Source of the DNA: an uncultured delta proteobacterium
GTDB lineage: Bacteria > Desulfobacterota > Binatia > JACPRU01
NCBI GenBank assembly: GCA_963745025.1
Contig: CAVUWD010000002.1
Span: 32,001 to 96,000, forward strand
DNA length: 64,000 nt
Reading direction: 5' to 3'
The position numbers were made by a program, and so were the translations under genes. Below the pieces are notes generated by a model. That model did no database searches. It saw only the letters and a program-made list of their open reading frames with translations, and was not told the DNA's origin. The stretch's first letter is position 1. Every line of letters starts with the position of its first letter. Of the stretch, positions 2,335 through 44,747 are shown one piece after another.

Positions 2335-3319
2335 GTGCACTATCTGATCACAGGCGGGGCGGGGTTCATCGGCTCGCACCTCGCCGAGCGTCTGATCTCG
2401 CTCGGTGACAGTGTCACCATCATCGACGACCTCTCGACCGGGTCGATCGATAACATCACGCATCTTCGAGCCTCACCCGAAATTTCACTACGTGATCGAC
2501 GTCGATCGAGGAAAAGAGCCTACTCGGCCGAGCTCGTGGACGAGGCGGACGTCGTCTACCACCTCGCCGCCGCGGTCGGCGTTCGGCTGATCGTCGAGAG
2601 CCCGGTCGCGCACCATCGAGACGAACGTCCACGGCACGGAGGTCGTGCTCGAGCTGCGCCGACGAAGAAGAAGAAGCGCGTGCTGATCGCCTCGCACGTC
2701 CGAGGTGTACGGCAAGCGCGAAGCGAGTGCCCTTCCGCGAGGACGACGACCTCGTCCTCGGCCGCACCGACGAAGGGCCGCTGGAGCTACGCGTGCTCGA
2801 AGGCGATCGACGAGTTCCTCGCGCTCGCGTACTGGCACGAGAAGAAGCTGCCGATCGGTGGTCGTGCGCCTCTTCAACACCGTCGGCCCGCGCCAGACCG
2901 GCCGCTACGGCATGGTGATCCCGAACTTCGTCCCGCAGGCGCTCGCCGGCCGCGACCGATCACCGTCTACGGCGACGGCACGCAGATCGCGCTGCTTCAC
3001 GCCACGTCCCCGACGTGGTCGGCGCGTCATCGTCGCTCGTCATCGCCGCCGGAGCGCCCGTCGGCGAGGTCTTCAACGTCGGCAGCGACCACGAGATCAC
3101 GATCAATGCGCTCGCTGCGATGGTGCGGGAAATGACGGAGAGCACGTCCGAGATCGTCCACATTCCCTACGATCAGGCGTACGCCGACGGTTTCGAGGAC
3201 ATGCGCCGGCGGATCCCGACCTGACGAAGCTCCGGCGCTTCACCGGGCACGCGCCGAGCAACGGCATCCGCGAAATCCTCCGGGACGTGATCGAATCCAT
3301 GCGCGCGAGCGTGCCATGA
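2335..3319 (+). CDS. NAD-dependent nucleotide-sugar epimerase/dehydratase (several frameshifts)
   Basis: ITGGAGFIGSHL, YHLAAAVG, YACSKAIDE (YxxxK), RLFNTVGPRQ spread over three frames. Confidence 0.85.
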
Positions 3320-36390: not shown

Positions 36391-37290
36391 ATGGAGAAGA
36401 TCGACCGCCTCGGGTGGGCGGCAGGATTCTCCTTGGTTTCCTATGGAGTCCGGGTAGGGATCCGGACCAACAGGCCGGAGATGTTGGGGCGGCTCCGGGA
36501 GCTTCTACCGCCTGGCTGGAAGCCTACGGCTTCACCAGTTGTCGAACGACTGTATTCGCTCCTGGTCGGCAAAGGCGCGCCGCGACCCGGTTTGCGCCGC
36601 TTCCACCTGCTTTATGGGGATTCCGACGTCGTAGGTCGGGCGTCGAATCTGGACTCGATCTGTGAAACTCTCGAGTCGAACCTGCAACTCCATGTCGCGG
36701 AAAACGCGCGCCGCCGAACCTTCATCCACGCAGGCGTGGTGGGATGGCGAGGGTGCGCCGTCGTGATCCCGGGGCGAAGCTTCACGGGCAAGACCACGCT
36801 GGTCCGGGAGCTCGTCCGCGCGGGCGCAACTTTCTACTCGGACGAGTACGCGGTTCTGGATGCACGTGGCCTCGTGCATCCGTTCCCGAAGCCTCTCGGC
36901 ATCCGCAACGAGGGCGCGACGAAGCAGACGAAACAGTGGGCGGAGGCGCTCGGCGGCCGTACTGGAGTCGAGCCTCTACCGGTGGGATTGATTCTGCTGA
37001 CTCACTACAAAGCCGGCGCGACGTGGCGAGCTCGCCGATTGTCCGCCGGGGAGGGCGCATTGGCGCTGCTCGCGAATGCGGTGCCCGCCCGCCGGCAGCC
37101 CGGCCGCACTCTGGCGGCACTCCGGGCGGTAGTGCTGGGAGCGCAAGTGCTGAAAGGCCCTCGCGGCGATGCTGCTGAGGTCGTAGAAACATTGCTCGAT
37201 CGAGTGCGGACCTGGCATGGCGCGATAGTAACCCCGAAGGGCCAGCGCCAGATCGAGTTGGAGAACTCGCAGATGGAGTATCGATCATGA
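36391..37290 (+). CDS. HPr kinase-related P-loop kinase
   Basis: FIHAGVV, Walker A GRSFTGKTT, YSDE, VHPFPKPL. Confidence 0.8.
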   Translation: MEKIDRLGWAAGFSLVSYGVRVGIRTNRPEMLGRLRELLPPGWKPTASPVVERLYSLLVGKGAPRPGLRRFHLLYGDSDVVGRASNLDSICETLESNLQLHVAENARRRTFIHAGVVGWRGCAVVIPGRSFTGKTTLVRELVRAGATFYSDEYAVLDARGLVHPFPKPLGIRNEGATKQTKQWAEALGGRTGVEPLPVGLILLTHYKAGATWRARRLSAGEGALALLANAVPARRQPGRTLAALRAVVLGAQVLKGPRGDAAEVVETLLDRVRTWHGAIVTPKGQRQIELENSQMEYRS

Positions 37291-37784
37291 CCGACACAAG
37301 ACGACCATTGCCTGAGGCGCGTAGAGAAGACATCGTTGTCCAGGAGTTGCCGGATGAGACGCTTGTTTACGACCTGAAGCGCCATAAGGCGCTTTGCCTG
37401 AATCGTGCAGCCGGCCTCGTCTGGAAGCACTGCGACGGACGGACGAGTGTCGCCGAAATGGCCGTGCTCCTCGAACGGGAGCTGCAGACACCCGTGAAGC
37501 ATGAGGTGGTGTGGTTCGCGCTGGAGCGACTGGAGAAGGCTCGCCTGCTCGAAGAGAAGCTGGACCTGCGGTCTGGCGTGAAACGACTGTCGCGACGGGA
37601 GTTGGTTCAAATGGGGCTCGCCGCCGCTATTGCCGTGCCTGCCATCTTGTCGGTGGTTGCTCCGAGGGCAGCTCAAGCGGCTACCTGCCTTGCATTAGGT
37701 TCACCTTGCACCAAGAACAATCAGTGTTGCTCCAATCACTGCCGCTTTCCAACCCCGGGCCAGAGCGATGTCTGTGTGCCGTGA
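37287..37784 (+). CDS. PqqD/RRE domain fused to a Tat-like signal and a 6-Cys knottin-like peptide
   Basis: ETLVYD..LNRAAGLVWKHCDGRTSVAEM..LERLEKARLL (RRE); SRRELV + hydrophobic + AQA; C-X6-C-X5-CC-X3-C-X10-C. Confidence 0.8.
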   Translation: MTDTRRPLPEARREDIVVQELPDETLVYDLKRHKALCLNRAAGLVWKHCDGRTSVAEMAVLLERELQTPVKHEVVWFALERLEKARLLEEKLDLRSGVKRLSRRELVQMGLAAAIAVPAILSVVAPRAAQAATCLALGSPCTKNNQCCSNHCRFPTPGQSDVCVP

Positions 37785-37956
37785 ATGCTAGCAAGATCAT
37801 CATCCTCTCTCGTGCGAGCCTTTTCTCCCGCGCCACCCGCTGACGCCTGCGCCGACTCGTACCCCGAGCGGCATCGCCGGAGGCGCAATAATGGGCCTCG
37901 CAGTAATCTCGACGACGGTCTCGGTTGGTTGTGGTAGGTGAATGTTCGTTGTGGCG

Positions 37957-39006
37957 ATGAAACGAGGTAGGCGAATAGCTAGGATATTGGAGCATTGGTT
38001 GAGCCGGTCGACTTCGGGGATCGACAGGTGCACTGGGGAACTCCGCGAGATCGCACCGCTCCTTTTCCAAACCGGAACGGCGGCTTTGGCGTGGAGAGCC
38101 CTATGCCATCTCGATTCCGGGTCGTTTCCATTCGCGCGCGAGCTTCGGCAAGCGTACCGGCTGCAGGTCCTTCAGGCGGCTCTAAATGAGCGCGACATCA
38201 GCCAGCTCGGTATCTTTCTCAAGACATCCGGACTAACGGCCCTATTGGGAAAAGGATGGGCAGTAGCACGGCTGTACCCGGAGCCTGCACTTCGCCCTTA
38301 CGGGGATTTCGACTTGTACATGCGCCCACAGGACTACGCTGCCGCAGCAGCAGCGTTCGCGGGATCCGACGCTCCGCGATGCCCGGTGGACTTGCACTGT
38401 GGGTCGCTCGAGCTCGACGATCGCGGGTTCGACGAGGTGTATACCCGCTCGCAGGTGGTCAAATGCGGCGAAATGGAGGTGCGGATCTTCGGGCCGGAGG
38501 ACCACCTCCGCTTGCTGTGCGTGCACATGCTTCATCACGGTGCATGGCGGCCGCTCTGGCTTTGCGATATCGCGGTGGCGCTGGAGTCGCGCCCGGCAGA
38601 CTTCGACTGGGCCTATTTTTTGAGCGGCGATCCACGCCGTTCGGACTGGGTCGCTTGCGCCATCGGATTGGCGCATCAGTTGCTCGGCGCGCGCGTAGAA
38701 GGGACGCCGGTCGAACAGCGGTCGACGTGTCTACCGCGCTGGCTCGTGGCCGCGATTCTCAGGCAATGGGGCAGGAGGCGCTTACCTGACGGAATGCTCG
38801 CTCCGATGGAGCATCATCTGCGCAATCCTCGCGGGGTGCTCGAGGCTCTCCGCCTACGTTGGCCGAACCCGATTGAGGCGACCGTCAGAAGGGGTGGCCG
38901 ATTCAATGAGGTCCCCAGGCTACCGTTTCAGATTCGCGAGTGTCTGATGCGCACGATGCGCTTCGCTACACGACTACCAGGCTTGCTGCGCGAACCGGTC
39001 ATTTGA
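37957..39006 (+). CDS. Nucleotidyltransferase (NTP_transf_5-like)
   Basis: KGWAVARLYPEPALRPYGDFDLY, VDLH, PEDHLRLLCVH..LWLCDIA. Confidence 0.82.
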   Translation: MKRGRRIARILEHWLSRSTSGIDRCTGELREIAPLLFQTGTAALAWRALCHLDSGSFPFARELRQAYRLQVLQAALNERDISQLGIFLKTSGLTALLGKGWAVARLYPEPALRPYGDFDLYMRPQDYAAAAAAFAGSDAPRCPVDLHCGSLELDDRGFDEVYTRSQVVKCGEMEVRIFGPEDHLRLLCVHMLHHGAWRPLWLCDIAVALESRPADFDWAYFLSGDPRRSDWVACAIGLAHQLLGARVEGTPVEQRSTCLPRWLVAAILRQWGRRRLPDGMLAPMEHHLRNPRGVLEALRLRWPNPIEATVRRGGRFNEVPRLPFQIRECLMRTMRFATRLPGLLREPVI

Positions 39007-39034: not shown

Positions 39035-39172
39035 TGCATGTTTCGGCCGATCGTGAACACGGGGATCGGAGCGACGCGATCACCGGGATCGGTCGATGGT
39101 GAACACGAAGCTCGGCCTCGTGATCAGCCGGATCGGAGTCGTGATCACGCGGATCGGTCCGATGAACACGAG
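39035..39172. mobile_element. IS21-family-like terminus with six iterated 21-23-bp repeats, no istAB
   Basis: TG start, then TCGG-N-GTGAACAC/GTGATCAC units repeated. Confidence 0.6.
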
Positions 39173-39544
39173 CCACGACGCTCTTCGATCTCAGCCAAGC
39201 ATCTCGTCGTCATTTCTCGCCGGCAGTAGCCGCGAGGGCCCTCGTGCCTTCGGCTGCTGCCGGGCCTCCCCTCTTTTTCTTGGCTCGAGTTCGCCCTGGC
39301 GAAGGCACTCATGCTCGCGATCGCGATGCTGCTGCCGGCGCGCGAGATCCTCCGCAGCGGCGCCCCAGGCCCAAGAGGAGGCAGGGGCTACTACATCGCA
39401 GGAGCGGCGGTCGTTACTTCTTGCGGCCCTGCGACAGCATCATGTCGAGGAGCTTGTTCAGCGCCGCCTCGGTGAGCTTCTCCGGCTCCGGCGGCAGCAT
39501 CGCGGTCGTCAGGCACTGGCGTCCGAGCGCATCGCCCGTGTCGG

Positions 39545-40032
39545 GGAGCTGCGCAGCACGGAGTCGGCGCCGATCGTGAAGGACATCCGCGACTGGCTGC
39601 TTACCCGCAGGGCGCTTCCCCGCTCCTCGCTCGGCCGAGCGATCGGCTACACGCTCGAGCTCTGGCCGGGGCTGACGAGATTTCTCGTCGATCCGGCGAT
39701 CCCGAGCGACAACAATCACACCGAGCGCGCAATGCGCGGCGTCGCCGTGGGCCGCAAGAACCACTACGGGTCCCGATCCCAGCGGGGAACCGAGGTCGCC
39801 GCGCTCTTCTACAGCCTCATCGAGTCGGCCAAGCTCGTCGAAGGAGTCGAGCCCGCTCAATATCTCCGTCAGGCCGCGCGACGCGCGATCGACAATCCCG
39901 GTACGGTTACCCTGCCCGCCGATCTCCTCGCGCCGTAGGCTTCGCTGTTCGCCTCCCGCCACCCCATCTCATCCGCGCCGATCCTCGGCCATCCCCTTAC
40001 GCTGTGCTACACGGGGCGCGGCGAGCACTTAC
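39545..40032 (+). mobile_element. IS66 remnant: transposase C-terminus (to 39938) plus right end
   Basis: SSLGRAIGY..DNNHTERAMRGVAVGRKN..YSLIESAKL; terminus ..GAGCACTTAC (GTAAG on the reverse strand). Confidence 0.85.
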
Positions 40033-40057
40033 GCTCAACCGCAGGCCGTTGACAGCC
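40033..40057 (-). other. Left half of a putative attC site, cut by IS66
   Basis: Directly after the doc stop: GGCTGTCAAC-GGCCTGCGG-TTGAGC; partially complementary to the cassette start GTTAGCCAGCC. Confidence 0.45.
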
Positions 40058-40468
40058 TCAACGTGACCTCGTCTTTACGACATGAGCTCGCAGCCATGCG
40101 GCGAGTTCTCGTTCACTGACGCGGTGCGCCGCCACACCGAGCATGACCTGAACGACGTCGGGTTCTGGCGCTTCCAGCCGCCAGCCGTTCAGCTCGAGGA
40201 AGATCGCCATCGCAAGAAAGGCAACTCGCTTGTTCCCGTCGCGGTAGGGGTGGCTCGTTGCCAGTCCCCATCCGTAGGTCGCTGCCAGCCTCGGAAGGTC
40301 GCACTTCGGCTCGTAGTGCCAGCGCTGCTTGGCACGCGCGACGGCGGATTCGAGCGCGTTCTCGTCCCGAATCCCGGGCAGGCCGCCGTGCTCCCGCAGT
40401 TGGTCGAGATGAACCGCGTCGAGAACGACGCGCTCTACCCACGCGGGTTCCCAACGGCGGCGGGGCAT
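40058..40468 (-). CDS. doc: Doc/Fic toxin
   Basis: HGGLPGIRD, HPYRDGNKR. Confidence 0.92.
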   Translation of the reverse strand: MPRRRWEPAWVERVVLDAVHLDQLREHGGLPGIRDENALESAVARAKQRWHYEPKCDLPRLAATYGWGLATSHPYRDGNKRVAFLAMAIFLELNGWRLEAPEPDVVQVMLGVAAHRVSERELAAWLRAHVVKTRSR

Positions 40469-40471
40469 GAG

Positions 40472-40699
40472 TTACTTCGCCAGCTCGCGCAGGGCGTTTC
40501 GGTACTTCTTGGCGACCCGTCGTGCAATCGCCAGGGCTCGCTCAACCTCGGGATCGTAGGGCGTAATCAGGATTCCCTGCTCGCTTTCCACGGCCAGCAC
40601 GCGATCTCCGGGCTCCAGGTGTAGCCGGTCAACCATGTCCTTCGGCAGGGTCGCACCGATAGACCCCCCCGCCCGTCGCAGAGTAAGCTGCTTCACCAT
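40472..40699 (-). CDS. AbrB/MazE-type antitoxin partner of Doc
   Basis: LRRAGGSIGATLPK..L..GD..ITPYDP..YRNALRELAK. Confidence 0.88.
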   Translation of the reverse strand: MVKQLTLRRAGGSIGATLPKDMVDRLHLEPGDRVLAVESEQGILITPYDPEVERALAIARRVAKKYRNALRELAK

Positions 40700-40707
40700 G
40701 CTTTCTA

Positions 40708-40725
40708 GTAGCACTTCCGTACTAC
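40708..40725. promoter_or_regulatory. Palindromic operator of the Doc TA pair
   Basis: GTAGCAC-TTCC-GTACTAC upstream of the antitoxin start. Confidence 0.5.
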
Positions 40726-40738
40726 ACGGACAACGGCT

Positions 40739-40764
40739 GGCTAACAGTAAGTAGATAGCCCAAC
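40739..40764 (-). other. Putative integron attI / cassette core site
   Basis: Minus strand GTTGGGCTATCTACTTACT-GTTAGCC: AT-rich spacer before a GTTAG core. Confidence 0.45.
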
Positions 40765-40782
40765 GATGGAGGTTTGTCTGGA

Positions 40783-40820
40783 GCCCCAGGAGGCATGGCC
40801 TCTGGGGCGTTTTTGTTTTC
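40783..40820 (+). terminator. Rho-independent terminator-like hairpin
   Basis: GCCCCAGGAGGC-ATG-GCCTCTGGGGC followed by GTTTTTGTTTT. Confidence 0.45.
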
Positions 40821-41186
40821 GACCAACCGCCGGCAAAGGCGGGCGACCAGGGGGGCAGTCCATGTCCGAACCATTGTGGAAGAAACTGGGCGAGGTCGGT
40901 CGGACCAGAGCATCGCTGCAAAAGGTGTGGAGTAATAGGCGAGTGATCTATGAGGAGAATTTCAGCTCTCCACACCCCTAGACCAGCAGCTTCCTGAAAA
41001 ACTCGGTATCCCCGGGTCGATAAGACATCGGAACTGCGCCGCTTGTACGAGTGCGACAAATGCTTGTTCAGGGCTCAGTCCGTTGCACCAGTTGCGCCGA
41101 CCACGAGCGGTCGCAATACCTGCTCGTGGAGAGCTACTCATGCTAGGGGCGAGGATCAGCAGGCGCAGACTTCCTGTCGCGTTTCT

Positions 41187-41501
41187 CTATGCCGGCGCGC
41201 GGTCTGCGCTGCCGGTCGGTGCTGTGATTCTGTGGACCTTGATGCGGTGAGCCGTCTTCTCGGCCTGGGCAAGATCGTACTGCATCTGGAGGCCAAGCCA
41301 GACCTCCGGGCGGCTGCCGAAGGCCTTGGACAGACGTATCGACATCTGCGGGGAGATCCCGGCCTTGCCGTTGACGAGGTTATTGAGGGTCTGGCGCTTC
41401 ACGCCAAGCCGCTCGGCCGCCTCAGTGATGCTGAGGCCCAGAGGTTCAATGCACTCTTGCCGGACGATTCTGCCGGGATGCGGTGGGTTCTTCATGGGCA
41501 T
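41187..41501 (-). CDS. higA: HigA antitoxin
   Basis: MKNPPHPG..LSITEAAERLGV..ISPQMSIRLSKAFG..WLGLQMQYD. Confidence 0.92.
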   Translation of the reverse strand: MPMKNPPHPGRIVRQECIEPLGLSITEAAERLGVKRQTLNNLVNGKAGISPQMSIRLSKAFGSRPEVWLGLQMQYDLAQAEKTAHRIKVHRITAPTGSADRAPA

Positions 41502-41515
41502 CGCCTTTTTCCTTC

Positions 41516-41680
41516 TTAGTGGTAGTCGATCAGGTCGACGTCGTAAGTGTCGCCTTCCTGGAATCGGAAGATGACGCACCAGTTCGCCCGACTGTCACGC
41601 TCCAAAACCCTTGAGATCGCCTTTCAGGGGGTGGAGCCGGAAACCGCGCAGGTTCATGTCTTCAGGTTGGCGGATGCTCG
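41516..41680 (-). pseudogene. higB: HigB toxin C-terminal remnant
   Basis: Own translation PEDMNLRGFRLHPLKGDLKGF/WSVTV/NWCVIFRFQEGDTYDVDLIDYH*; N-terminus missing. Confidence 0.8.
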
Positions 41681-41810
41681 AGGAGCTCTTTGGAGACTTT
41701 CCGTTTTCGGTGGACGCCGACCGAGCGCATGCACTGGGCGCGCTTCTCTACCCATTCGCTCGTGAGGTCATCGACTCGCCGTTGCCGCTTCACATGGTCG
41801 ATGCCCCCAA
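41674..41810 (+). pseudogene. Fragment resembling a phage/plasmid primase-helicase segment just before Walker A
   Basis: LEELFGDFPF..DADRAHALGALLYPFAREVI..PLHMVDAP. Confidence 0.5.
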
Positions 41811-41911
41811 CGCCCTGACCGAGCTTTCGTGTCCTTATTGTAGGATTTCCGCATGGGGTGGTGTCGGAGGTAGTCCGCGAGCTCAACGACCTTCGAGCAT
41901 CCCGCTCCTCA

Positions 41912-41946
41912 TTGACGTAGTCACCGCGACCGCCTATCGTGACTAC
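41912..41946 (+). promoter_or_regulatory. Sigma70 promoter with overlapping operator, leaderless start
   Basis: TTGACG-N17-TATCGT; inverted repeat GTAGTCAC/GTGACTAC; ATG 6 nt after the -10. Confidence 0.75.
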
Positions 41947-42234
41947 ATGAGTAAGGTCGACAAGATCGTCGGCGTCCGCGAGGTCCGTGCCAGGATGAGC
42001 GCTTACCTTCGTGCCGTGGCGCATGGGGAGTCGATCACGATCGCCGACCGCCGCAAGAAGCCCATCGCGCGTCTGGTTCCCATAGAGACGAATCCCGAGC
42101 GGGAAGCGCTGCGCCGCCTCGCATCGATGGGCGCGATTACACTGGGAGTCGGCAGGCCCGGACGAAACCCGCCGCTGAGATTGCGGCGCAAGGGACGTCT
42201 CGTCTCCGACATGATAATCGAAGATCGGCGGTGA
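41947..42234 (+). CDS. vapB: Phd/YefM antitoxin
   Basis: VGVREVRARMSAYLRAV..GESITI..PIARLVP. Confidence 0.88.
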   Translation: MSKVDKIVGVREVRARMSAYLRAVAHGESITIADRRKKPIARLVPIETNPEREALRRLASMGAITLGVGRPGRNPPLRLRRKGRLVSDMIIEDRR

Positions 42235-42653
42235 TCCTCTATCTCGACGCCAGCGCGGTCGTGAAGGTTTACGTGGCCGAGACGGCGTCCGACAGGGTTC
42301 GCGAGCTCGTTGTCGCGGCCGATGGTCTCTTGACGGTGCGCATCAGCTACGCGGAGGTGCGCGCCGCCTTTGCTCGCGCTCGCCGCGAGCGTCTGCTTTC
42401 CGCGGCAGATCTCCGCGCGCTGACTCGAGCATTCGATGAGGACTGGGCGCGATACTCGATCGTCGAGGTGAGCGATGCCGTCGTTCGTCAGGCAGCCTCG
42501 CTCAGCGAGCGTCACGCGCTGCGTGGATATGATGCCGTGCAGCTCGCGGCCGCACTCGCCGCGGGTCAGGCGATCGACACGATTCGATTCGTGTGCTTCG
42601 ACGAGCGGCTGGCGCGCGCTGCGCGTCGAGAGGGCCTGGCGATCGCGGTGTGA
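42231..42653 (+). CDS. vapC: PIN-domain toxin
   Basis: YLDASAVVK, YAEV, LRGYDAVQLA, FDERL. Confidence 0.92.
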   Translation: MILYLDASAVVKVYVAETASDRVRELVVAADGLLTVRISYAEVRAAFARARRERLLSAADLRALTRAFDEDWARYSIVEVSDAVVRQAASLSERHALRGYDAVQLAAALAAGQAIDTIRFVCFDERLARAARREGLAIAV

Positions 42654-42730
42654 ACGGCGGTCGCTTCTAGCTCAGGCGTCCGAAACACTGACCCGTCCTC
42701 TCAGTAGATGAGATCTTCGGTCCACCTTGC

Positions 42731-42774
42731 TGTCGCGGTAGGGGCCGAGGGCAACCCCAGTCCCTACCGCGACA
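42731..42774. repeat. 13-bp perfect hairpin resembling a group II intron domain VI end
   Basis: TGTCGCGGTAGGG..GCAA..CCCTACCGCGACA. Confidence 0.5.
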
Positions 42775-42847
42775 CACACAGGAGGTGAGGGAGAGCGAAG
42801 CGGTTCCGTCCAAAGGACGATCCGGCAGCTGGCCGAGCGTGCAATAC

Positions 42848-43288
42848 TCAGCGCGTCCGTTTCCCGGGCGTCCTTCGCGGGGCGCCGAGACGCTTCTCGG
42901 CTCGCCGTAAGAGGATAGATTTCGCCGGTCTTCCCGGGAATGTGCGCCTTAGAAGCGCGTACCGGTCAGCTCGATTCTTGCAGCCCTTGAGGAGCGCGCG
43001 AACGCGACGAAGGTCTTCCTCGCGCCTTCTCGCCCGATAGGCGATGACGTATTCCGAACGCTTCTTGGCGGACGGCACTCCGCGGCCCTTGCAAGCTGCG
43101 GAGCAATACTTTTGAGGTCTCCCCCTGACGCTTCGCGTGAAGATCCGCCGACAGCCACGCACGAGGCAGACTCCGAAAGCAAACTTCCGGTCCCTAGTTA
43201 CTGCCAGCAGCGCGGCCGCGGTGAGGTCACCTAGCTCCGCCGATGCGATCTGCCACGAGATCCTATCCCCACTTCTGCGCAACACCAT
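42848..43288 (-). CDS. CGNR-like zinc-finger protein, probably truncated
   Basis: CLVRGC.RIF..RGRPQKYCSAAC. Confidence 0.5.
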   Translation of the reverse strand: MVLRRSGDRISWQIASAELGDLTAAALLAVTRDRKFAFGVCLVRGCRRIFTRSVRGRPQKYCSAACKGRGVPSAKKRSEYVIAYRARRREEDLRRVRALLKGCKNRADRYALLRRTFPGRPAKSILLRRAEKRLGAPRRTPGKRTR

Positions 43289-43513
43289 CTCAGCCGAACT
43301 GGATGCTCGATGTCAGCCCCGATGGCAGAGCCGGTACTAACGCGCCGAAAGCCAAACGGCGCCGAGGGTCTGTGCTAGCAGTTCCTTGAATTGCTGTTGT
43401 CGCAAGCAAAGGCGGTCGAGAAGCCGGTCTCTCGGTATCGCTGCGACTAGGTTCGTGACGGCTTCGCCAGTCATCGCGATCAGCACGTTCCTGAATCTGT
43501 CGAGCATTTGATC

Positions 43514-43657
43514 GACCGCGTCCTCGAGGCGGCGGCAGAGGGCAAGGCCGACGTGATCGTGTCGGGCGACCGACATCTCTTGCGCCTCAAGGCCTGGCGG
43601 AGCATCTCGATCGAGTCACCGGCCGCGTTCATCGCGCGGTTGGGCGAGCCGGCGTGA
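43514..43657 (+). pseudogene. PIN toxin C-terminal remnant
   Basis: Own translation DRVLEAAAEGKADVIVSGDRHLLRL..SPAAF. Confidence 0.7.
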
Positions 43658-43715
43658 AGGGGCAAGGGGTAAGGAAGGACGGCGACGCGGCGAGAAAGAA
43701 CCCGGGTTGCCGATC

Positions 43716-43947
43716 TCAGGGATTAGGGACCTCGTGTTCTTGCACGAGCAGCGGCCAGTGCCTCCTCCGGGCCGGGACCGTGGCTCGGAAGTGGCGAAAA
43801 TCCCAGGTGAGAATCAGGCCGCCGCGGGTCGCGGCCATCGCCATCACGATCGCATCGACCAAATCGAGCCCGCTCTGTCCGTACCTCTCGACCAGGTCGA
43901 GAGCGCGACCGTGTTCGCCGTCCGTCGGCCTGTCGAGCGAGTGCTGC
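43716..43947 (-). pseudogene. Second PIN toxin C-terminal remnant
   Basis: Own translation RALDLVERYGQSGLDLVDAIVMAMAA..ILTWDFRHF. Confidence 0.7.
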
Positions 43948-44067
43948 CTCGACGCAGGCGTCGAAAAGCCGTGCCATCGCCAAGGCTTTAGACATGACCC
44001 CCTTCTCGAATGGGCAGACGAACATCGCGGTGAACTCGGCAGCGCCGCGATCTGGTTTGCCCTCGCA

Positions 44068-44081
44068 TAGCACGCGTGCTA
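44068..44081. promoter_or_regulatory. Perfect 14-bp palindromic operator
   Basis: TAGCACGCGTGCTA just upstream of the antitoxin ATG. Confidence 0.65.
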
Positions 44082-44092
44082 CACGAGAGGAC

Positions 44093-44344
44093 ATGTCGCG
44101 CACCATCACGCAACGCGAGCTCCGCAACGACAGCGGAAAGATCATGCGCGCGCTCGACGCTGGCAAGACGTTCATCGTGACGCGCAACGGCGTGCCGGCG
44201 GCGGAGCTGCGTCCAATCGAGCGCCGCAGGTTCGTGTTGACGTCCACCCTGCTCGAGACCGCGGCCGTGCTGGCGCGGGTGAAAGCCGACCGGTTCTTCG
44301 CCGACCTCGACAGGCGTCTCGATCAGCACCTCCGCAATGGCTGA
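44093..44344 (+). CDS. vapB: Phd/YefM antitoxin
   Basis: ITQRELRNDSGKIMR..FIVTRNGVPAAELRP. Confidence 0.9.
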   Translation: MSRTITQRELRNDSGKIMRALDAGKTFIVTRNGVPAAELRPIERRRFVLTSTLLETAAVLARVKADRFFADLDRRLDQHLRNG

Positions 44345-44747
44345 AGCCGCCACTCGCGACCGCGGCCTCCTCGACACCTCGGTGGTGATCGACCTCCCGA
44401 GCATCGATCCTTCGCACCTGCCGGCCGAGTCTGCGATTTCCGCGCTAACGCTTGCGGAACTTGCCGCCGGACCACACGCCACACGGGACCCGGGTGAGCG
44501 CGCCCGGCGCCAGCAGCGTCTCCAGTGGGCCGAGGCGACGTTCGATCCACTCCCGTTCGACCTAAGCGCAGCGCGCACCTTTGGCGTCGTGTTCGCAGCG
44601 GTCCAGAGGGCGGGCCGCAGAGGCCGTCGCCGAGTCGTCGACCTAATGATCGCGTCGGTTGCCGTCGCGAACGGTCTGCCGCTCTACACGCGCAACGCAG
44701 AAGACTTTCGAGGGCTCGCACGAGTCGTCCAGGTCATCGAGTGCTGA
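44337..44747 (+). CDS. vapC: PIN-domain toxin
   Basis: LLDTSVVID, TLAEL, DLMIA, LYTRNAEDF. Confidence 0.92.
   Translation: MAEAATRDRGLLDTSVVIDLPSIDPSHLPAESAISALTLAELAAGPHATRDPGERARRQQRLQWAEATFDPLPFDLSAARTFGVVFAAVQRAGRRGRRRVVDLMIASVAVANGLPLYTRNAEDFRGLARVVQVIEC

Follow-up and report, generated by a model that had tools for sequence, protein, structure and literature searches.

The window analysed here, a 64,000-nucleotide stretch from an uncultured delta proteobacterium, carries a cassette of three genes on the + strand, as are its parts, the polysaccharide locus and the IS66 remnant given below: a 299 aa kinase of the HprK/PEPCK (phosphoenolpyruvate carboxykinase) fold with His113, Walker-A Lys134 and Asp151-Glu152 (36391-37290), a 165 aa fusion protein that joins an RRE (the recognition element for RiPPs, which are peptides synthesized ribosomally and then modified post-translationally) to a leader and a core and is the predicted precursor (37287-37784, from the open reading frame call and a PF05402 match), and a 354 aa NTP_transf_5 nucleotidyltransferase of the Pol-beta type with K104-G105, D122-x-D124 and D150 (37942-39006). 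The three open reading frames lie where a first-pass annotation of the window had put them, and they form the 3' end of a polysaccharide locus of ~33 kb that starts with a WecA/MraY-like gene at 3316. The system is real and conserved, and it is probably peptide-modifying. The kinase and fusion genes share an ATGA at 37287-37290, which had been taken for translational coupling. The overlap itself is present, but among the 46 kinase-fusion pairs that are adjacent it was seen in 1; gaps of 5-167 bp separate 43 of the pairs, and the other overlaps of the remaining two may be start-calling errors. The window copy overlaps because its kinase is ~25 residues longer than most homologues. Conserved ATGA coupling is ruled out by these counts: the conserved feature of the pair is adjacency, and the coupling is local to the window copy.

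The features of the fusion suggest a precursor to which its own RRE binds, in keeping with the earlier description of the fusion as an RRE-precursor. The PqqD-like RRE domain (residues 9-89, 37311-37553), delimited by PF05402, AlphaFold and structural matches, scores 25.9 bits against PF05402 (cut-off 23.4), and the tail has weak knottin-type matches. The AlphaFold model (predicted local distance difference test, pLDDT, 87) consists of the RRE plus a leader strand at 120-123, and the structures closest to it are lasso B1-leader complexes, TbiB1 (5V1V; best, E 0.003) and 6JX3. Direct-coupling analysis of 397 sequences ranks the RRE-leader pairs 36-122, 39-118 and 33-128 at 4, 7 and 10, and these pairs describe an antiparallel register against RRE strand 3. 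Model, conservation and covariation define a recognition strand, I115-x-x-P118-x-I120-x-S122-V123 (37629-37655), inside the hydrophobic stretch of the leader; among the 397 distinct sequences P118 is conserved in 99%, position 120 is always V or I, S122 is found in 88% and P126 in 98%. As modelled, the leader strand sits in its own RRE, the canonical RRE-leader geometry within one chain. RRE and leader are in one frame in 141 cases, compared with 3 leader-only and 1 RRE-only.

The putative twin-arginine/AxA export signal in this leader is the most distinctive part of the system. As in substrates of twin-arginine translocation (Tat), the window leader has an S/T-R-R-x-hydrophobic motif, here S102-R-R-E-L-V107 (37590-37607), followed by an uncharged stretch and an AxA. 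R103 is found in 100% and R104 in ~100% of the 397 sequences, and in none of them is either replaced by Lys. A TatFind-like rule, with its N-terminal position requirement dropped, is satisfied by 359 of 393 fusions, and 348 of the 393 have an AxA-like site. The A-Q-A of the window copy (37671-37679) is a predicted signal peptidase I site, where general signal-peptidase rules would place cleavage after Ala131, a residue conserved in 85% of the 397 sequences. TatC and signal peptidase I are both encoded in the source genome.

Which residue of the core might be modified? In the linear polyphosphorylated peptides (LPPs) of Bacillota, encoded by lppA-K-B-S-D-N, LppK phosphorylates core Ser3 of LppA and rejects the S3T variant, and the motif YxxPxVLxHQxIxFETxxS places the modified Ser at P+15 (Popov et al. 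2026, PMC13381572). Ser or Thr stands at P+15 in 356 of 390 fusions, against 22, 31 and 23 at +13, +14 and +16, and alignment position 133 is Ser or Thr in 95% of the 397 sequences. Since this is the register of the modified Ser of LPP, Thr133 (37683-37685, P118+15) is the best acceptor candidate and, by analogy, the likely phosphorylation site; the proposal of the first-pass annotation that core Ser/Thr residues are phosphorylated thereby acquires a conserved candidate residue. A C-terminal Ser acceptor, the mode of lasso kinases, was rejected: the window core ends in Pro, and Ser-ended cores number 22 of 390.

The 34-residue core (37680-37781) has six cysteines in knottin spacing (C134, C141, C147, C148, C152 and C163). 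The Cys count is even in 382 of 390 complete cores and is six in 259, and the top covarying pair of the whole fusion in the direct-coupling analysis is C134-C148, the knottin I-IV pair. Knottin structural matches of the core are weak, at E 0.86 or worse; of the pairings I-IV, II-V and III-VI that make an inhibitor cystine knot, the covariation bears on I-IV, and the spacing fits. The disulfide-knotted mini-protein fold is known mostly from animals, plants and fungi. Some members continue beyond the core: P0371 has a Peptidase_S74 self-cleaving chaperone domain there, and P0295 a stretch that is Hint-like by eye and has no Pfam match. A gene for a MauE-thioredoxin fusion, a possible disulfide helper, lies inside the cassette in two loci (L015:11004-12719 and L091:7308-8858).

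Both enzymes appear intact, with catalytic motifs that are invariant in 35 aligned sequences each: H113, K134, D151 and E152 in the kinase, and K104-G105, D122-x-D124 and D150 in the transferase. The kinase, which is single-copy in the source genome, has TIGR04352 HprK_rel_A as its best NCBIfam match, at 48.9 bits (cut-off 200), and its AlphaFold model (pLDDT 90.9) matches the PEPCK/HprK fold. The HPr kinase/phosphorylase of carbon regulation has that fold in common with it and was rejected as an identification, with 16.4 of 240 bits for TIGR00679 and 13.1 of 33.3 bits for PF07475. The transferase matches PF14907 NTP_transf_5 at 92 bits; a search by sequence for solved relatives returned none below E 0.36. 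A model of its complex with the fusion scored 0.81, and the best of three controls 0.02; 116 of 157 solved complexes, but 2 of 215 mismatched pairs, attain the score mark applied to such models. The model runs have at least 84% of contacts in common, with a partner pLDDT of at least 78. In the modelled interface, transferase helix 66-84 (R73 in 30 and L77 in 29 of 35 sequences) lies on the outer sheet face of the RRE (V17, Q19, L26, Y28, A35 and C37) and on leader residues 123-129, and the interface also includes the catalytic D122 of the transferase and core residues 144, 149-152 and 164-165. The model speaks for the predicted binding between transferase and fusion, with the RRE as docking site.

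The co-occurrence of the three genes, assumed from the window, was borne out by a neighbourhood check across genomes. Fusion homologues numbered 732 among 1,203 candidates, and clustering at 50% identity gave 2,050 fusion representatives with E up to 1e-30; the named matches are mostly from Blastocatellia/Pyrinomonadaceae. Profiles were taken from 151 genomes, many of them drafts and each scored by its best candidates, from the class of one Pyrinomonadaceae genome (Acidobacteriota; G193 is unpublished). The fusion was found in 80, the kinase in 76, the transferase in 82 and all three in 73. Every one of the 76 kinase genomes has the fusion, the kinase occurs in 0 of the 71 fusion-negative genomes, and the transferase is present in 77 of the 80 fusion genomes. 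For gene order we used the 63 of 134 fusion genes that had 3 kb on both sides, drawn from 80 metagenome loci, 40 hand-picked genome regions (mostly long contigs) and 3 other loci. Within 3 kb of these 63 fusions, both enzymes are found in 28 cases, the transferase only in 18, the kinase only in 2 and neither in 15. A glycan marker lies within 10 kb of 35, and a glycan marker or a gene with a Peptidase_C25 domain within 10 kb of 49. The cell-surface connection suspected from the position of the window cassette is strengthened, as the cassette closes a polysaccharide locus and glycan markers recur near the fusion genes of its relatives.

Several features of these neighbourhoods stand on their own. 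A block of WecA-like, WaaL/Wzy-like and TPR (tetratricopeptide repeat) genes, a gene for a ~200-230 aa protein, a second TPR gene and then kinase/fusion/transferase genes recurs in L129-L132, L148, L057, L064 and L108; the ~200-230 aa protein looks secreted and has no Pfam or NCBIfam match, and the block often precedes tsaB. Genes for large secreted proteins whose C-terminal domain is Peptidase_C25 (PorU-like) occur within 5 kb of 26 of the 63 fusions, for example at L057:9881-13003 and in L090, L108 and L111. A CxxCxxCC-family gene adjoins the cassette at L128:7317-8525 and in L047, L090 and L094, and also does so in the sole same-family relative with the cassette. In the window's phylum, L150:8261-16914 (genome G494) encodes a stand-alone homologous RRE, a radical SAM/SPASM protein, a kinase with the same Ser-Asp-Glu motif, a C25 peptidase protein, an S24/S26-like peptidase and ABC (ATP-binding cassette) proteins, an LPP-like cluster without a fused core.

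Lasso machinery is missing from the cassette, as had been noted from the window, and scans of the source genome (92.65% complete) agree. PF13471, for the lasso B2 protease, had one match genome-wide, on another contig, to a transglutaminase-like membrane protein of 487 aa; NF033535, for the lasso cyclase, had nine matches in the genome, none over the cut-off; and a pattern scan of the window gave no separate lasso-like precursor. An asparagine synthase gene 2.7 kb upstream was considered as a hidden cyclase and rejected (600 bits for an exopolysaccharide amidotransferase model against 257 for the cyclase), as was a second RRE in the genome, since the other PqqD gene belongs to the pyrroloquinoline quinone operon. 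Among relatives, a B2 gene lies within 10 kb of 3 of the 63 fusion genes, and the cluster of these in L089 has its own discrete RRE. Lasso-like clusters with a discrete RRE, B2, a cyclase-like gene, methyltransferases and ABC genes adjoin fusion genes at L089:12850-15513, L121:525-9043 and L076:13307-16327.

How might the three genes work together? The reading to which we incline, without holding it strongly, is a phospho-peptide system akin to LPP, with RRE and precursor joined in one chain and a leader that also serves as Tat signal. Once translated, the chain would place its leader strand I115-V123 on its own RRE as a fourth strand in the lasso B1 mode, as the model and the covariation indicate. 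The kinase would then phosphorylate Thr133, which is kept at 15 residues' distance from the recognition Pro like Ser3 of LppA; we consider this step probable. The transferase would dock on the outer sheet face of the RRE, as modelled, and extend the phosphate, for which the case is evenly balanced. The product of that step would most likely be a sugar-phosphodiester, as with PsmN, formed directly or via an intermediate activated with nucleoside monophosphate (NMP), with sugars from the neighbouring locus. Quite probably, the twin-arginine leader would send the modified chain through Tat while the RRE remains inside, and the housekeeping signal peptidase would cut after A-Q-A, leaving the 34-residue core to form three disulfides outside. 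A chain that bears bulky modifications would be well served by Tat, which may take the place of the dedicated exporter and peptidase of LPP. On this reading a knottin, variable and phospho-glycosylated, would end up on the cell surface or close to it, and our best guess at its role is surface or matrix decoration.

A number of observations weigh against this scheme. The putative Tat motif lies ~100 residues from the N-terminus (residue 103), unlike that of standard Tat substrates, the consensus Phe is replaced, the NCBIfam Tat-signal models do not match the excised leader (residues 97-165), and in the model the hydrophobic stretch of the signal is a strand lodged in the RRE. Thirty-five of 391 members lack Ser or Thr at P+15 (in 18 of these such a residue stands at +14 or +16), Asn takes the acceptor position in three loci that have both enzymes (L111, L113 and L115), and about half of the family has Thr there, the residue that LppK rejected. 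Lasso kinases have a His-Lys-Asp-Asp motif (review, PMC9266682), and the window kinase, which otherwise has the same His-Lys-Asp-acidic motif, has Glu for the second Asp. Thr133 is outside the modelled transferase interface, and LppN is described as giving no detectable product (PMC13381572), which bears on the transferase step. Covariation and the AlphaFold model of the fusion draw on overlapping alignments and are not independent, and the 151-genome profile overstates independence because the genomes are kin, many are drafts and best candidates were scored.

If the pathway is as proposed, it could still end differently, with an NMP that the transferase leaves on the phosphate of the core (peptide-O-P-P-nucleoside) as the final state, close to the nucleotidylation that the first-pass annotation had in mind. 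The Pol-beta-type motif is intact, the transferase is modelled on the RRE, and reviews treat an intermediate nucleotidylated by PsmN as an open possibility (PMC9266682). We think this end product unlikely: the sole characterised homologue in such a cluster, PsmN, yields a hexose on the phosphate, being needed for one or two hexoses on the phospho-Ser of pseudomycoidin (PMC6993621), LppN gave no product, and the recurring link to WecA, Wza/Wzc and WaaL would be left unexplained. Nucleotidylation as an end state is therefore unsupported.

What speaks most against a simple operon model is a set of four genomes (G001, G125, G175 and G202; loci L129-L132) in which the kinase and transferase genes end WecA-WaaL-TPR loci with no fusion nearby. 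Enzymes that stay with WecA-WaaL genes are tied to the glycan pathway, and this leaves room for another explanation, that they serve a surface glycan or other secreted proteins, for example those with C25 domains, the RRE being a mere adaptor and the knottin exported unmodified. C25 genes within 5 kb of 26 of the 63 fusions, and a transferase in five genomes where the fusion was not found, point the same way. All four genomes, however, carry fusion genes elsewhere, an arrangement that fits action in trans on scattered precursors, and the kinase occurs without the fusion in 0 of 151 genomes. The Ser/Thr conserved in the LPP register also argues for the peptide, and tblastn found no C25 gene in the source genome. 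We regard a glycan or other protein substrate as quite unlikely.

It is very unlikely, in our judgement, that the fusion is modified and stays in the cytoplasm, with the RR helix an enzyme-recognition element and the cysteines binding metal. The internal position of the motif, the lack of a Tat model match and a CxxCxxxCC-family gene beside 4 of the 63 fusions would agree with such a protein. An RR pair that is never Lys in 397 sequences and is followed by a hydrophobic stretch and AxA would not, and even Cys counts with I-IV covariation fit disulfides. Least credible is a hidden internal start that yields a separate, ordinary Tat precursor, with the RRE part as a second product of the same gene, since the 20 codons that precede RR, although they hold a start codon and its Shine-Dalgarno-like word in 24 of 127 genes against 3 of 127 for a control stretch, hold none in the other 103, so that an internal start is not supported as a family-wide feature, whereas 84 of 113 N-terminal starts have such a word and the RRE and leader are in one frame in all but four of the cases counted above.

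Returning to the LPP-like scheme, a more speculative extension, which we put forward as possible although doubtful, is that the fused RRE is an export gate. It would mask the hydrophobic part of the Tat signal and dock the enzymes until the core is phosphorylated, and the activated peptide (Thr-P, then NDP-like, i.e., resembling a nucleoside diphosphate) would then be joined by a phosphodiester to a surface polysaccharide or lipid carrier. If true, this would be a widespread, undescribed way in which soil bacteria covalently display variable knottin mini-proteins by the thousands, and would account for the role of LPP and paeninodin clusters within capsule loci. If the export step holds, the system has an RRE at work, in cis, on a Tat signal, and gives hypervariable disulfide-knotted mini-proteins a source in bacteria. 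The question of PsmN/LppN chemistry gains a defined substrate in one chain, for which the binding site is modelled and the acceptor residue predicted.

The surroundings of the window cassette suggest how it was gained. Upstream, the surface polysaccharide locus (3316-36194) encodes, besides the WecA/MraY-like protein, two Wza-like proteins, Wzc, a sugar nucleotidyltransferase, glycosyltransferases, an amidotransferase and a membrane protein. Directly downstream, family scans identify an IS66 transposase remnant (39096-39938), after which small genes resemble toxin-antitoxin pairs (Doc-, PIN- and HigA-like by eye), and this run at 39096-44747 hints at a mobile edge. One of 60 relatives in the window lineage has the fusion, and the full fusion was found in 0 of 300 genomes of its phylum; this rarity, together with the IS66 remnant, points to acquisition of the cassette along with the glycan locus. 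The plasmid records searched gave no match, and a promoter and terminator scan gave one site of each, at chance level.

Several known systems resemble the cassette in part. The HPr-rel-A cassette likewise has an HprK-related kinase (TIGR04352) adjoining a PqqD-like protein (TIGR04353). Its cassettes probably also include a nucleotidyltransferase and lie in exopolysaccharide loci. Unlike those, the window kinase is far below the TIGR04352 cut-off and the fusion has no TIGR04353 match at E 0.1, and the PqqD partner in HPr-rel-A is a discrete 74-residue domain, whereas the PqqD-like domain here is fused. DUF2063-RRE systems with signal-peptide precursors (DUF2282) also have RRE-dependent precursors with an export signal, but the signal is Sec, the RRE is on another protein and the enzymes are different (PMC12710340). 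The fused family was not found in the accessible text of RRE-Finder (PMC7470986) or of its 2025 update, which puts the share of PF05402 proteins that are long and lack other annotation at 21% (PMC12710340); nor was it found described in the rest of the literature searched, which covered few subscription journals and had the RRE-Finder supplements, which may list such proteins, outside its scope. The accessible parts of PMC5067487 and bioRxiv 2021.04.07.438883 added nothing.

The closer comparisons are with lasso tailoring and with LPP. Paeninodin and pseudomycoidin clusters (PadeK/PsmK, PsmN, B1) use the same three protein families (PMC6993621, PMC9266682), the B1-type RRE is closest in structure to the window RRE, and the transferases have the DxD motif in common; however, lasso clusters have B2, a cyclase and a separate precursor, none of which is in the window cassette, and their RRE is discrete. 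The distinct RiPP class proposed by the first-pass annotation was in concept already published in 2026 as LPP (PMC13381572), so a kinase, RRE and NTP transferase without a cyclase is not a new idea. LPP likewise combines an RRE, an HprK-like kinase and an NTP transferase without a cyclase in polysaccharide loci, with a lasso-like recognition motif, a hydroxyl residue at P+15, signal-peptidase-type cleavage just before it and a variable C-terminus. LPP nevertheless has a discrete RRE and a separate precursor, where the window family has RRE and leader in one chain, and its YxxP contrasts with V/I/L-x-x-P, agreement being confined to P, a hydrophobic P+2 and S/T at P+15. The LPP core is linear, Ser-modified and from Bacillota, and that of the window family is a predicted cysteine knot with Thr as common as Ser, mainly from Acidobacteriota. 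LPP has a dedicated SpI-like peptidase, LppS, and an MsbA-like exporter, and the window cassette has neither; the source genome has one S26 and one S24 peptidase gene, both on other contigs and outside the cassette, and the S24/S26-like protein of L150, used as query in place of LppS itself, had no match in the other 149 loci. Unlike LPP, the window family has a leader with a twin-arginine motif and AxA; 'twin-arginine' and 'knottin' are absent from six LPP supplement files (PMC13381572). The system would work like LPP and paeninodin tailoring yet belongs to neither. What is new relative to LPP is the fused RRE-precursor, the Tat-type leader, the putative knottin core and the lack of a dedicated peptidase or exporter, and the novelty lies in the precursor, in which RRE, predicted export signal and putative knottin form one chain.

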